Source: a virus (lineage: Duplodnaviria > Heunggongvirae > Uroviricota > Caudoviricetes). Taken from it: a stretch of 4,758 nucleotides of DNA. Each line of letters starts with the position of its first letter. The first letter of the stretch is position 1. Location of the stretch: the IMG/VR virus record IMGVR_UViG_2802429219_000009, one strand, 5' to 3'. Both the position numbers and the translations under genes were made by a program. Below the pieces are notes generated by a model. The model searched no databases. It saw nothing but the letters and a program-made list of their open reading frames with translations, and was not told the DNA's origin. Shown piece after piece: positions 1 through 4,758 of the stretch.

Positions 1-2160
1 GGTTTTCCGCCTTCACATGCCGGGACCATTACCGTCTATGAAGGTTCCAGACCAGGTACGCTGAATGATTTTCTCGGTGCCATGACGGAAGATGATGTCA
101 TGCCGGAGGCATTGCGTCGTTTTGAGGCAATGGTGGAAGAAGCGGCACGCAACGCTGAAGCCGCCTCTCAGAGCGCAGCAGCGGCAAAGAAATCCGAAAC
201 TGCAGCGGCATCATCGAAGAACGCGGCGAAAACCTCAGAAACGAATGCAGCTAACAGCGCACAGGCGGCAGCGTCCTCGCAGACTGCATCGGCAAACTCC
301 GCGACAGCAGCCAAAAAATCAGAAACCAATGCGAAAAACAGTGAGACAGCCGCAAAGACGAGCGAAACCAACGCAAAGTCCAGCCAGACGGCAGCGAAAA
401 CAAGCGAAACGAATGCCAAAGCCAGTGAAACTGCGGCGAAAAGCAGTCAGGATGCAGCAGCCGAAAGCGAGAGTGCTGCAGCTGGTTCTGCGACTTCAGC
501 AGCTGGATCAGCAACTGCTGCGGCTAACAGCCAGAAAGCCGCGAAGACGAGCGAAACTAACGCAAAGTCCAGCCAGACGGCAGCGAAGACCAGCGAAACG
601 AATGCCAAAGCCAGCGAAACTGCGGCGAAAAACAGTCAGGATGCAGCAGCCCAAAGCGAGAGTGCCGCAGCTGGTTCTGCAACAGCGGCAGCTAATAGCC
701 AAAAAGTTGCAAAAACCAGTGAAACTAACGCAAAGACGAGTGAAACAAAAGCAGCAGCCAGCGAGACAGAAGCAACGTCAGCCGCAACAAGAGCAGAGAA
801 TGCAGCCCGGATTGCAGAAGATGCCGCTGATCCTGCTTCTGTCCCTCCGCTTCCTGATATCTGGCTACCCTTGAATGATTCTCTGGAAGCGATAACAGGG
901 TATGCCCCGGGCTATAAAACAATAACCATCGGCAGTGATGAAATAACAATGCCTGTTAATGGCATATGCCAATTTAGCCGGGCTTCATCTGCAACGTATA
1001 TTGATAAGTCCGGGCATATTACCGTGGCAGGGAATAACGTTCCTCGTTTTGAAAAATATGGTTTGCTGATAGAGAATCAGCGAACAAACATGTTCGTAAA
1101 TAGTTTTAATCCTGATGCCTGGAATAAAAGCGGTGGTATATCTGTAACATCATCAACAGATGAATTTGAGTTTAAATATGGACGTTTCACGGTAGGAAGC
1201 GATATAGCAGGAACGACAACAGGGCGAAATATATGCACAGTTGCTGGTAACAAAGGCATAGATGTGACTGGCGATGATCAGTACAGTAAAGGTCCGTATG
1301 TTACCGCGTCGTTCAGGGTAAGAAGTGATCTCAATGTTCGCGCACGTATCCGTTTTGAACGATATAACTCGGAAGGATACACCTTCCTTTGCGACGCCTA
1401 TTTGTCATTACAGACCCATGAACTACAAATTACTGGTGGCAATGCCCAGCTATTAACAGCAAACTTTGAAATCGATCCAGGTAGTGGATGGATATATTTT
1501 CAGGCAACACTGAAATGTCTGCCAGAATGGGGAATGGTTGGTACGCAGCTGCAAATTGCAGCCGACAGAGCTGTGGGGTCTTTTGCAACAGGTGACTGGA
1601 TAGAAGTAACCACCCCGCAATTCGAGTATGGTGCTTGTGCAACTTCCTTCATCATAACGACAACTGAGCCAGCGACTCGTGCATCAGATTTATGTAAATT
1701 TCCGCTGATGAAAAATATGTATACCATGCCTTTTACGTTCATGGTGGAAGTCCATAAAAACTGGTTTATTTCTCATAATGCGGCACCGCGTGTCATTGAT
1801 TCAGAAAATCACCAGTCCGGAGGCCCATTTATTATGGGGTTTGGTTCTTCTGGAACTATTAGTCAGGACGGTTATTCGTATTGCGATATAGGCGGGGCTA
1901 ACCGACGTGTATATGAGTCATGCGGAGTAAGAGATCTTGTTATGGGATTCAGGGTTAAGGCTGACGGCATGACATGCTCATTTGCAAATAAGCATATAAG
2001 CACAGAAACAAAAACAGTATGGAAATATATTCGTGAAGCTGCTGTGATTCGTATCGGGGGACAAACGACGACAGGATTACGACACCTTAATGGTCATATA
2101 AAAAACCTCCGTTTCTGGAACAGAGCATTGTCAGATACGCAGCTTAAGGAATACGTATAA
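1..2160 (+). CDS. stf: Side tail fiber protein, 5'-partial (frame open from base 1; first in-window ATG at 82). Lambda Stf/StfR-like N-terminal region and Ala-rich repetitive shaft, then a different C-terminal tip ending in a LamG/concanavalin-like motif
   Basis: Frame 1 is open from nt 1 with no stop until TAA at 2158-2160. The translation begins GFPPSHAGTITVYEGSRPGTLNDFLGAMTEDD, which matches the conserved region of lambda Stf / E. coli StfR as I recall it. Residues about 30-250 are low-complexity KTSETNAK / AAxSxxAA repeats typical of Stf shafts. The C-terminus ends ...GLRHLNGHIKNLRFWNRALSDTQLKEYV, resembling the terminal strand of LamG-like jelly-roll domains. The alternate-frame and antisense ORFs over 92..949 are composition artifacts. 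Confidence 0.85.
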   Translation, partial: GFPPSHAGTITVYEGSRPGTLNDFLGAMTEDDVMPEALRRFEAMVEEAARNAEAASQSAAAAKKSETAAASSKNAAKTSETNAANSAQAAASSQTASANSATAAKKSETNAKNSETAAKTSETNAKSSQTAAKTSETNAKASETAAKSSQDAAAESESAAAGSATSAAGSATAAANSQKAAKTSETNAKSSQTAAKTSETNAKASETAAKNSQDAAAQSESAAAGSATAAANSQKVAKTSETNAKTSETKAAASETEATSAATRAENAARIAEDAADPASVPPLPDIWLPLNDSLEAITGYAPGYKTITIGSDEITMPVNGICQFSRASSATYIDKSGHITVAGNNVPRFEKYGLLIENQRTNMFVNSFNPDAWNKSGGISVTSSTDEFEFKYGRFTVGSDIAGTTTGRNICTVAGNKGIDVTGDDQYSKGPYVTASFRVRSDLNVRARIRFERYNSEGYTFLCDAYLSLQTHELQITGGNAQLLTANFEIDPGSGWIYFQATLKCLPEWGMVGTQLQIAADRAVGSFATGDWIEVTTPQFEYGACATSFIITTTEPATRASDLCKFPLMKNMYTMPFTFMVEVHKNWFISHNAAPRVIDSENHQSGGPFIMGFGSSGTISQDGYSYCDIGGANRRVYESCGVRDLVMGFRVKADGMTCSFANKHISTETKTVWKYIREAAVIRIGGQTTTGLRHLNGHIKNLRFWNRALSDTQLKEYV
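352..750 (+). repeat. In-frame tandem coding duplication in the fiber shaft: copy A 352..540 (189 bp), copy B 541..708 (168 bp), then a diverged partial third copy from 709. Copy A also carries an internal 21-bp duplication (481..501 and 502..522)
   Basis: Read directly: gcaaagacgagcgaaaccaacgcaaagtccagccagacggcagcg... at 352 recurs as gcgaagacgagcgaaactaacgcaaagtccagccagacggcagcg... at 541 with only scattered substitutions. The protein-level copies are AKTSETNAKSSQTAAKTSETNAKASETAAKSSQDAAAESESAAAGSAT(SAAGSAT)AAANSQKA and AKTSETNAKSSQTAAKTSETNAKASETAAKNSQDAAAQSESAAAGSATAAANSQKV. Confidence 0.8.
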
Positions 2161-2429
2161 TGCGGGATATAACATTACGATTCGATAACAGAGAACAGTT
2201 TAACGCAATTGTATATGACAGTGGCCTGTTCAGTCTTGAAGAAGAAAACGGGGTTCTTGTTGATGTTATTGGCTGCGTTATCGATTACGAGGAGCCAGAA
2301 AACGAAAGATGTACAGGCATTGATCGCGGTGGTTTTTTCGTAAATATGAGGATCGTTGATAGCAGTAAAAATATATCTTCTTTAATGCCTTTCATTACGA
2401 CAGATCAGCATGTAAGGACATGGGCTTAA
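2160..2429 (+). CDS. Hypothetical small acidic protein (89 aa), translationally coupled to the tail fiber gene; function unknown
   Basis: ATG at 2160 overlaps the stf stop (TAATG). AAGGA at 2146-2150 lies 9 nt upstream of the ATG. The ORF is co-directional and tightly packed with its neighbours, with no hydrophobic segment. I recognise no family by eye. Confidence 0.55.
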   Translation: MRDITLRFDNREQFNAIVYDSGLFSLEEENGVLVDVIGCVIDYEEPENERCTGIDRGGFFVNMRIVDSSKNISSLMPFITTDQHVRTWA

Positions 2430-2441
2430 TGGAGTAAGACA

Positions 2442-3125
2442 ATGGTTACAAAAACAGTAATTCCGGGAGACATCACCACGCTAAAGGGAGATATTTCCTC
2501 AATTAACGGAAAAGTATCAACGCTTCAGACTGAGATGACCAGTGCAAAGCAGGATATCAGCTCCAGATACACAAAAACTGAAGTTGATAATAAGCTGAAA
2601 AACAAAGTGGAAGTGAACGATCTGGAAAGTGGTCGTTATGGCGGAGATTTTTATCCACTGACAGGTCGTGAAGCGTTTTATTTATGGAATTTGGCCACGA
2701 CTACAGCGGCGGCAAACCTTTATCTTAATCCTGACCCCGCAATTTCGTCTGTGCTGCGGTCAACATCGTCTATCCGCTATAAACATTCAGTAGAGACAAT
2801 AGATTCAGAGCACGCTGATCTCATTTTCAGGATGCGCCCTGTGTGGTACAGGTCACAATGCGAAAATGACAGGCGTGACTGGGGATTCTACGGATTGATT
2901 GCCGAGGAAGTAGGAGAAATTGCCCCTCAGTTTGTACACTGGCGACCAGCTAACGAAGATGATGCACCGGAAGCTATTTCCAGCAATGGCCTTGTTGCCG
3001 AAGGTGTAATGTACGAACGTCTGGTTGTTCCACTGATTCACCATATCCAGAAGCTGACTGAAAGAGTTGATGAACTTGAGTCAGAATTAAAGTTGTTATC
3101 CGTTTCCCGAAGCGATATCGGATAA
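2442..3125 (+). CDS. Tail fiber-like protein (227 aa) with an N-terminal coiled-coil-like segment and a C-terminal intramolecular chaperone domain (peptidase S74 / endosialidase-chaperone type)
   Basis: GGAG at 2431-2434 lies 7 nt upstream of the ATG at 2442. Residues about 105-220 (nt about 2754-3101) read SSIRYKHSVETIDSEHADLIFRMRPVWYRS...WGFYGLIAEEVGEIAPQFVHW...GLVAEGVMYERLVVPLIHHIQKLTERVDELESELKLL. This follows the S74 chaperone pattern (S-D-x-R-x-K-x-N-I ... P-V-x-Y ... G-F-I-A-Q-E-V ... Y-x-x-L-I-P-L-L-I-x-A-I-x-E-L ... coiled coil) recalled from endosialidase and T5 L-shaped fiber C-termini. Confidence 0.8.
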   Translation: MVTKTVIPGDITTLKGDISSINGKVSTLQTEMTSAKQDISSRYTKTEVDNKLKNKVEVNDLESGRYGGDFYPLTGREAFYLWNLATTTAAANLYLNPDPAISSVLRSTSSIRYKHSVETIDSEHADLIFRMRPVWYRSQCENDRRDWGFYGLIAEEVGEIAPQFVHWRPANEDDAPEAISSNGLVAEGVMYERLVVPLIHHIQKLTERVDELESELKLLSVSRSDIG

Positions 3126-3135
3126 AGGAGGAGTA

Positions 3136-3429
3136 ATGGATATAACACCTTTCCTTCATGCACTTTGTGCTGTGGCTGCGCAGGTACTGATTGGCCTTTT
3201 TACCGGAAACTGGGTTTACGGTGCGATAGCTGGTTGTACGTTCTTCATTGCGCGTGAACACACCCAGGCAGAATATCGCTGGATTGAAATGTTCGGGCAT
3301 GGCAAGCGGATTAACATGCCGTGGTGGGGCGGTTTTGATCCGCGTGTTTGGGATGTGGCAAGCCTGATAGATTTTGCTGTGCCGGTGGTGGCGTGTCTGC
3401 TGGTCTGGCTGTTGGTTAATCGTGGGTGA
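3136..3429 (+). CDS. Small hydrophobic membrane protein (97 aa, 2-3 predicted transmembrane segments), function unknown; candidate lysogenic-conversion or superinfection-exclusion gene
   Basis: A strong RBS (AAGGAGG at about 3125-3131) lies 5-6 nt upstream of the ATG at 3136. There are hydrophobic stretches at residues about 6-38 (FLHALCAVAAQVLIGLFTGNWVYGAIAGCTFFIA) and about 74-94 (VASLIDFAVPVVACLLVWLLV). It is the last gene of the co-directional block. Confidence 0.7.
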   Translation: MDITPFLHALCAVAAQVLIGLFTGNWVYGAIAGCTFFIAREHTQAEYRWIEMFGHGKRINMPWWGGFDPRVWDVASLIDFAVPVVACLLVWLLVNRG

Positions 3430-3439
3430 AAAAAGGTGA

Positions 3440-3559
3440 GCTGTATATGCAACGGAGGAAGAAACCCCGTTGCTGGAAGCCAGGAAAAAGTATCGGGTGT
3501 TGCTGAACCGTGTTGATACGTCAACTGCACAGGATATTGAATGGCCAGCACTGCCGTAG
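3440..3559 (+). pseudogene. tfa: 3' relic of a tail fiber assembly (tfa) gene: a start-less 39-codon frame encoding the conserved Tfa C-terminus
   Basis: Frame 2 is open only from 3440 (preceded by an in-frame TGA at 3437-3439) to TAG at 3557-3559 and encodes [39 protein letters not shown]. The motif [11 protein letters not shown]-x-A-x-DIEWP is the conserved C-terminal signature of Tfa/U-type tail fiber assembly proteins as I recall them. There is no ATG and nothing upstream to complete a full-length tfa. Confidence 0.6.
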
Positions 3560-3656
3560 GGTAAAACATATAAATTCTATAATTAGATGTATCTTTCCAT
3601 TTACGGCAAGGAAGGGGGCTTGGAAGACGTAAAGCATCTCACACCGAGATTATTTT

Positions 3657-4247
3657 TTATATGTCAGGTGTCTGAAGTTTTGCTTTGGCTCTTAAAATGG
3701 TTTGCCGCGAGGTTTTGAATTCCCGGGCAATGGCACTTATACTTACACCTGACTTAATCCGTTCGAATACCACCTGTTTCTGTTCTTCATTTAACACAGG
3801 TGGTCGACCAAAACGTTTCCCTGCGCCCCGGGCTCTTACTATCCCGGAATGAGTGCGTTCAAGTAAAAGGTCTCGTTCAAATTCAGCGACTGCTGAAATT
3901 ACTTGCATCATCATTTTTCCTGTTGGACTGGTCAGGTCAATGCCCCCCAATGCTAAGCAATGCACTCTGATACCTGTTTCGGTCAGTTGTTCCACTGTTT
4001 TCCTGATATCCATTGCATTACAACCAAGGCGATCCAATTTTGTCACAATCAATTGATCACCACATTTCAGGCGAGCAAGCAACCGGTTAAAACCAGGACG
4101 CTCACTGGTTGCTGCTGAGCCGCTAATGTGTTCTTCGATTATTTGCTGAGGTTTGATTTTAAAACCTGCACTTTCGATTTCCCGGCGTTGATTTTCGGTG
4201 GTCTGATCCAGCGTTGATATCCGACAGTAAGCAAAAATTCGAGACAT
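3657..4247 (-). CDS. pinR: Serine recombinase / DNA invertase of the Pin family (PinR/PinQ-like), 196 aa
   Basis: Intact 196-aa ORF on the - strand. The N-terminus [15 protein letters not shown] carries the catalytic-serine motif of resolvase/invertase-type serine recombinases (Ser at position 11), and the C-terminus has an HTH-like segment ([21 protein letters not shown]). From memory this is essentially the E. coli cryptic-prophage PinR/PinQ sequence; I cannot distinguish pinR from pinQ here. Its placement convergent to the stf/tfa genes matches Rac/Qin/e14 organisation. Confidence 0.92.
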
Positions 4248-4340
4248 AGTGAGACTCTATACGAAATTGGTGTTCATATCATAATGCATCTCAGAAAATA
4301 ATTTTGATTATTTTTGTGCATATTTGTATGTGCACGTTCG
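4248..4340 (-). promoter_or_regulatory. Putative pin promoter/leader region in AT-rich DNA (candidate -10 TATGAT on the - strand, + coordinates 4278-4283; no convincing -35 found)
   Basis: This is the non-coding stretch immediately upstream of the pin start codon, and it has a weak RBS (AGAG). Only a -10-like hexamer was identified by eye, so this is a low-confidence positional inference. Confidence 0.3.
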
Positions 4341-4696
4341 AAAATAAACGAATGCGTATGCAACCCCGTAATTTTGGTGAGACCCAAAATCGATTTTGTG
4401 AAAAATGGCTTTAACTCGGTTTGTTTTTCGAGTTCCGGGCGGACTCAAGGAAGAAGAATAGTGTTGCGTGTTATTTTAACCAGATTTCAAGTTGTTTGGT
4501 CGTGGAAAAGTGGAGCAAAATGTTGTTAAAGTGGAAAAATGATAAAAAAGTAAGTTTATTATATTACATTTTACCATTTAAATTTTGGTTGTCTTTAAGA
4601 ACTGATATCGCTGTTTGTAATAATTCTTTGTTGAGCTGGCCCCCTGAAATACCAGACAGTAGATGTATCTTAAAATAAGAGATAGGCTTGGATATA

Positions 4697-4758
4697 TGTC
4701 TAACACTAGTTCTAATTTTGAGATGGCTGGCGTTTTGTTAGGAAAAGAGGTGCGTAAA
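4697..4758 (+). CDS. Possible 5' end of a + strand ORF running out of the window (MSNTSSNFEMAGVLLGKEVRK...)
   Basis: ATG at 4697 is preceded by AAGAGATAGG about 8 nt upstream, and the frame stays open to the window end. It is only 20 codons and AT-rich, so this is speculative. Confidence 0.2.

Follow-up and report, generated by a model that had tools for sequence, protein, structure and literature searches.

Does the serine recombinase gene that adjoins the tail fibre genes in this phage DNA act as a switch of those fibres, and if not, what would account for its presence there? The window, by which is meant the whole stretch of 4,758 nucleotides that was analysed, contains at 3657-4247, on the minus strand, an intact open reading frame of 196 amino acids that matches Pfam Resolvase (E 2.5e-36) and HTH_7 (E 3.8e-11). 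A preliminary description of this DNA had rightly called the serine recombinase frame intact, and had taken its product for an invertase of the Pin/Gin/Cin/Hin family with no segment to invert in sight. The gene has been described before, as has the fact that it is an orphan. What can be added here is the reason why the gene is an orphan: it is probably the fossil of a transposon resolvase, whose res substrate has now decayed.

The window belongs to a Rac/Qin-type lambdoid prophage of E. coli and covers the right end of its late region. Positions 1-4632 are 99.9% identical to strain ECAMP047, where the locus is preceded by gpJ and lom and the prophage ends about 1.3 kb past the recombinase, at a truncated ydfJ. 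The side tail fibre gene stf (1-2160, plus strand; PF08400; phrog_1419, tail protein) has its 5' end beyond the window, and its frame is open from base 1. Its product starts with a prophage tail-fibre domain, continues with Ala-rich SETNAK-type repeats and ends in a spike-fibre tip, and the NCBIfam GTA_spike_fiber match covers residues 329-534 of the 692-aa ORF. Within the Ala-rich SETNAK-type region, an internal tandem duplication can be seen at 318-735, with copies about 80% identical and offset by about 190 nt. The stf gene, open in the window, is annotated as broken in ECAMP047. It is followed on the plus strand by an 89-aa ORF, orf89 (2160-2429; phrog_1361, E 9.6e-31), which is hypothetical in the annotation of genomes H1 and H2; by a 227-aa tail-fibre-domain protein (2442-3125; phrog_3299, phrog_454) with a C-terminal S74 intramolecular chaperone domain (PF13884, residues 109-165); and by a 97-aa ORF (3136-3429; phrog_1443, E 3.4e-58). 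The fibre module thus comprises an stf tip with a GTA-like spike-fibre domain, then a separate S74-chaperone protein and two small ORFs. Overlooked in the preliminary description was a 3' remnant of the tail fibre assembly gene tfa at 3448-3559, plus strand, which matches tfa phrogs; its 36 codons, the last of the gene, are near-identical to the C-terminus of K-12 TfaR.

Beyond the recombinase gene, an AT-rich spacer leads to a 3' fragment of the cold-shock-like gene ydfK (4564-4632, minus strand), cut by an insertion sequence, and homology to every ydfK locus ends at 4632. From there to the end of the window (4633-4758, plus strand) extends the left end of an IS3-family element, with the ATG of orfA at about 4723, which matches an IS3-family transposase locus in genomes H66 and H67. 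The closest genomes have an intact ydfK, which in H1 spans the positions equivalent to 4564-4797, and in strains FHI_NMBU_10 and JNEC-KY176 the same element is located about 0.65 kb farther out.

A local invertible segment was sought in several ways. For a Din half-site matrix, real gix, cix and pix sites were taken from phage Mu, P1 and K-12 e14, together with hixL. True Din sites score 27-31 bits on this matrix. No Din-type site was found in the window, where the best score was 11.0 bits, a value equalled by 13% of shuffled windows, and none was found in a 28.6-kb locus of 99.9% identity (L001) that takes in the entire tail region as well as the end of the prophage, where the best score was likewise 11.0 bits. 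A search of the window for inverted repeats returned just short imperfect pairs of 16-35 nt, 70-88% complementary and scattered in coding sequence. Of the antisense ORFs in the fibre region, the two longest (117 and 108 aa) show no match to any family of phage proteins, and the genes stf, orf89, the S74 protein and the 97-aa ORF all lie on the plus strand. On these points the earlier reading by eye, which had reported a fibre region on the plus strand only, no antisense tip or tfa copy and no convincing gix/hix-like inverted pair, is borne out.

Several stretches picked as candidate sites were set aside. A pix-like stretch upstream of pin (about 4380-4405), chosen by eye, scored 2.5 bits on the Din matrix, and another where the tfa remnant begins (about 3455-3480), also chosen by eye, fell outside the top hits. 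The stretch at about 3640-3670, where a cixL-style site at the 3' end of the gene might be looked for as in P1, is the relic of a transposon end instead, as described below.

The preliminary description had allowed that the sites might lie beyond the window, and the corresponding explanation, a classical fibre-switch invertase with crossover sites and alternative tips just outside, has a real precedent among lambdoid phages: in HK225, a Din-type invertase gene occupies this map position, after the fibre genes. It nevertheless finds no Din-type site in the 28.6 kb of near-identical locus, and the prophage ends only about 1.3 kb beyond pin. Furthermore, the 291-bp junction from the end of tfa to the 3' end of pin is intact in 2,664 E. 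coli genomes, and an E. coli genome search by BLAST is reported in PMC12529663 to have found inversions only in e14 and none in Qin or Rac. With an enzyme that is just 36-39% identical to the Din recombinases, a switch of this kind is very improbable, and these results effectively refute it. The absence of a local invertible segment, as had been proposed, is upheld by the lack of Din-type sites together with the invariant junction.

If there is no switch, then the nature of the enzyme itself needs to be considered. The window protein is identical to K-12 PinR at 196/196 positions and to PinQ at 194/196. Compared with PinE, Gin and Cin, 68-71 residues are identical among 184-187 aligned (36-39%), against 75-82% among PinE, Gin and Cin themselves; for this reason it is not placed in the Din family. 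The stretch of pinR that corresponds to the cin enhancer as annotated has 58% nucleotide identity and carries a 12-nt insertion, against 76-79% among cin, gin and pinE. By the protein identities, the ORF is the known PinR/PinQ of Rac/Qin-type lambdoid prophages and not an invertase of the Pin/Gin/Cin/Hin family, so that the family assignment first given to it has to be replaced.

A database search revealed a large family related to PinR at 78-86% identity, mostly on plasmids. The closest diverged relatives, at about 84% amino acid identity, are the TnpR proteins of a 3.8-kb Tn3-family transposon, in which the gene lies 160 bp from a divergent gene for a 994-aa transposase (DDE_Tnp_Tn3). In one copy, L010, both genes are enclosed by terminal inverted repeats of 53 bp with 96% complementarity. 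Among species-representative genomes, a divergent tnpA (80-92% identical) begins 160-161 bp upstream of the gene in 22 further relatives, which come from many genera, and 20 of the 22 are full-length. The transposase is annotated by PGAP just as 'Tn3 family transposase', and we presume that the element may be related to Tn5403.

The homology between the window and L010 is continuous through the inverted repeat relic, pin and the res region, extending over 3618-4327 of the window in a local alignment, and MAFFT carries it on to about 4345. Downstream of the coding sequence, the local alignment continues through the pin stop codon into the 53-bp inverted repeat, with window position 3618 corresponding to L010 position 5630. 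The relic of this tnpR-side terminal repeat (3614-3662, minus strand) overlaps the stop codon; 37 of 49 aligned positions match the repeat consensus, there is a 3-nt deletion, and its outer GGGG end falls at about 3614-3618. No tnpA was found in the window, in L001 or in the K-12 loci, and upstream of the res relic the DNA is phage DNA leading to ydfK.

According to these alignments, the ancestry of PinR and PinQ is that of a Tn3-family TnpR resolvase. An ancestral phage would have received a Tn3-family transposon about 55 bp downstream of tfa, and the surviving stump would consist of the resolvase gene with the tnpR-side terminal repeat on one side and about 100 bp of res on the other, the transposase gene having gone. 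A literature search combining pinR with Tn3 returned plasmid surveys, none of which, by title and abstract, concerned PinR ancestry, and among these titles and abstracts we found no paper describing a Tn3-family origin of PinR. No member of the resolvase clade of this transposon was found to have been characterised biochemically.

The substrate expected of such an enzyme would be a res site, and a comparison was made of the tnpA-tnpR intergenic regions of 16 transposon copies. All have conserved blocks with variable spacers between them. The block nearest tnpA contains a nearly invariant 26-bp dyad, TGACCGAAACCG-GT-CGGTTTCGTACA, at 114-115 nt from the tnpR ATG, located at 4886-4911 in L010 and at the same place in the 15 other copies. 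From its dyad symmetry and position, and by analogy with the res of Tn3, this dyad is the putative crossover site I. Its 12-2-12 layout with an AAACC...GGTTT core recalls the invertase sites gix and pix more than site I of Tn3.

Upstream of pin, the decayed res region of the window (4248-4360, minus strand) comprises, besides the likely promoter of pin, relics that resemble sites III and II and, at 4335-4360, a relic of site I. The identity to L010, followed outward from pin, is 36/43 in the site III and promoter segment, 21/32 in the site II-like segment, 8/14 in the spacer, 11/26 in the site I relic and 6/18 beyond it. Within the site I relic, the right half matches at 8/13 positions and the left half at 3/13. 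On a matrix of the transposon site I, real sites score 33-36 bits and the window relic 6.7, which equals the shuffled background. A scan with this matrix found no transposon-type site I in the window, L001, the K-12 Rac, Qin and e14 loci or HannyBb, and the pix, gix and cix sites have negative scores on it. The break in homology at the putative crossover centre is what resolvase-mediated exchange would leave, but it could be ordinary decay over these 26 positions.

With a Tn3-family TnpR as its apparent ancestor, PinR would have lost as substrate the res site and its transposon rather than a segment of the fibre genes. At this fibre locus the gene would never have served as a switch, which is why no segment lies nearby for it to invert. 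The suggestion that the recombinase had been retained after loss of its substrate and may act elsewhere therefore comes close to the evidence, and also to the action of PinQ on the e14 P segment described in PMC12529663, except that a res site takes the place of the alternative fibre tips. As the recognition helix is almost that of the transposon enzyme, PinR is predicted still to bind resolvase-type half-sites (TGTCCGAAA-like).

Whether binding is accompanied by efficient catalysis is a separate matter. In an alignment with gamma-delta resolvase, Y7, R9, S11 and R73 of PinR correspond to Y6, R8, S10 and R68, and Cys76, encoded by a TGT codon at 4020-4022, corresponds to R71. The Tn3 catalytic set of Y6, R8, S10, D36, R68 and R71 is incomplete in PinR: E39 replaces D36 (Tn3 numbering) family-wide, and C76 replaces R71 in the prophage lineage only. 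The motif DRLGC is confined to Escherichia/Shigella prophage alleles (5/120 clusters, 9/80 loci), and DRLGR occurs in 112/120 clusters and in 71/71 loci from other genera. For Tn3 resolvase, the changes R71A and R71K are known to abolish recombination and to slow cleavage about 1000-fold (PMC2794168).

Taken as a whole, PinR/PinQ is in our judgement probably a leftover Tn3-family resolvase with a decayed crossover site and a mutated catalytic Arg, which was never the fibre switch of this locus. A more extreme form of decay, in which the gene is a functionless relic that has yet to gain a stop codon, can draw on the loss of transposase, crossover site and key catalytic Arg alike, and on the fact that most copies are at least 99% identical and for this reason young. 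It is set against a dN/dS of 0.34 between two Cys76 prophage alleles (dS 0.23) and of 0.15 relative to the transposon gene, values by which the gene would not be drifting freely. The ORF is also complete in about 2,800 genomes and present in deposited phage genomes such as HannyBb (100%), and phenotypes of pinQ deletion are reported in PMC12529663. A functionless relic is accordingly judged unlikely. The leftover resolvase may instead be kept under selection for a role to which efficient recombination at the locus is not essential; DNA binding with autoregulation is one candidate, and a weak action in trans such as that reported for PinQ on e14 is the other.

Action in trans has been developed into a full model. 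According to Kirigo et al. (2025; PMC12529663), adjacent DNA is not inverted by PinQ, and the 1,797-bp P segment of e14 is inverted in trans. According to this explanation, PinR/PinQ would be an active invertase that flips Din-type segments elsewhere, for example the 1.8-kb e14 P segment, an anti-phage switch, and the locus in the window merely encodes the enzyme. The same article reports that overproduction of PinQ gives 88% inverted P segment compared with about 30%, that deletion of pinQ lowers both inversion and survival of T2, that these effects vanish in stfP, stfE and e14 deletions, and that pinQ and pinR are induced by T2 infection. As reported there, the overproduction and deletion data suggest a real recombinase activity on Din-type sites despite Cys76, and they count against the reading as a fossil resolvase.

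Other observations are difficult to accommodate in a direct action of PinQ. In a pinE single mutant, where pinQ and pinR are still present, the P segment is locked, again according to PMC12529663, and in the text consulted neither a test of PinQ in a pinE deletion background nor an in vitro assay was found. The enzyme has Cys in place of the Arg whose loss slows cleavage by Tn3 resolvase, and its recognition helix is that of a transposon resolvase on whose site matrix the Din sites score below zero. The K-12-type P segment with pinE, at an identity of at least 99%, was found in 274 records, compared with pinR/Q in 2,968 of 5,426 complete E. coli genomes. The results obtained here sit uneasily with a direct PinQ mechanism because of Cys76, the resolvase-type helix, a pix sequence unlike the ancestral site and the locked pinE mutant. 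An active invertase in trans is consequently regarded as possible but doubtful. With similar caution we raise, as a tentative proposal that may well prove wrong, that PinR/PinQ is a domesticated, catalytically attenuated Tn3-family resolvase kept by lambdoid phages as a DNA-binding factor, and that stimulation of the e14 P segment is indirect, via PinE or the balance of orientations, rather than strand exchange by PinQ at pix. If true, this proposal would overturn the mechanism put forward for the first 'recombinase-activated' anti-phage system.

The distribution of the gene shows how widely the question applies. Where pinR/Q is present in the complete E. coli genomes, the identity is nearly always at least 99%, and the gene is near-complete in 2,777 genomes. 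Deposited phage genomes carry pinR as well, and in HannyBb the gene order is also the same. Copies at 99-100% identity were noted in metagenome bins of Alistipes, Draconibacterium and Caldithrix (L019, L022, L023), and in these three bins pinR is most likely contamination from E. coli. Four rare alleles (P0004, P0005, P0007, P0008), 86-93% identical to PinR, appear mosaic, a transposon-type N-terminal part (Arg76) being joined to a C-terminus of the PinR type, a pattern suggestive of recombination of the tnpR of plasmids with the pinR of prophages.

The surroundings of the gene give an indication of how fibres are diversified at this locus. Window positions 3448-4632 (1185 bp: the tfa 3' end, pin and the ydfK fragment) are 99% identical to both K-12 Rac and K-12 Qin, and the start of the tfa remnant at 3448 is the left edge of this common block. 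No counterpart of 195-3447 was found in K-12 Rac or Qin. Fibre diversity would arise here by replacement of a module between the conserved 5' part of stf and the last 36 tfa codons, and not by inversion. The composition of the module suggests that a Tfa-dependent tip was replaced by a tip that needs no Tfa chaperone.

These findings bear on the interpretation of a gene that over half of the complete E. coli genomes carry and that annotation pipelines label an invertase. A recent anti-phage mechanism, as set out in PMC12529663, builds on PinQ as an active invertase. If the gene is a resolvase stump whose own crossover site is dead and whose catalytic Arg has been replaced, then no fibre switch is to be expected at Rac/Qin-type loci for these reasons, and phase-variable fibres should not be inferred from the name 'Pin'. 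The 'pinR' of Salmonella Senftenberg sits in a fljAB locus (bioRxiv 2025.10.27.684867) and was left out of the comparisons.

Compared with known systems, the window is nearest to the K-12 prophages Rac (PinR) and Qin (PinQ), with which it shares the order of tfa, convergent pin and then ydfK/ynaE, an order also seen at the prophage end in H1, H2, H110 and phage HannyBb. It differs from them in that the fibre module at about 195-3447 is a different cassette, tfa is cut to 36 codons and ydfK is split by the IS3-family element. With the Din family (Gin of Mu, Cin of P1, PinE of e14 and Hin), PinR has in common that it is a small serine recombinase with a C-terminal HTH whose gene adjoins tail fibre genes, and Gin is its best sequence match in the PDB (105 bits). 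Unlike these enzymes, PinR has 4-aa and 2-aa insertions and a recognition helix with RQTILR against STLYK, and its gene lacks both flanking 26-bp inverted sites and convergent alternative tips. In phage HK225 (L009), a true Din-type invertase, 35% identical to PinR, is situated at 5998-6546 between the fibre genes and attP; from this comparison, two unrelated small serine recombinases occupy one map position in different lambdoid phages.

The resemblance to Tn3 and gamma-delta resolvases lies in the divergent tnpA-res-tnpR layout of the PinR relatives, the several dyads between the genes, half-sites that resemble TGTCCGAAA, and the alignment of the catalytic Y, R, S and R. Gamma-delta resolvase is, however, only a distant match (83 bits, against 105 bits for Gin), and the PinR family would not be a textbook resolvase, its sequence score being somewhat nearer to Gin. 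Among diverged relatives, the closest likeness of the enzyme is to the Tn3-family transposon of enterobacterial plasmids (L010, L017, NZ_CP012500), with about 84% amino acid identity, a near-identical recognition helix and homology that runs on into the inverted repeat and res; the transposon copies keep the Arg, an intact 26-bp dyad and both inverted repeats, whereas the window has no tnpA, a decayed site I and Cys in place of the Arg.
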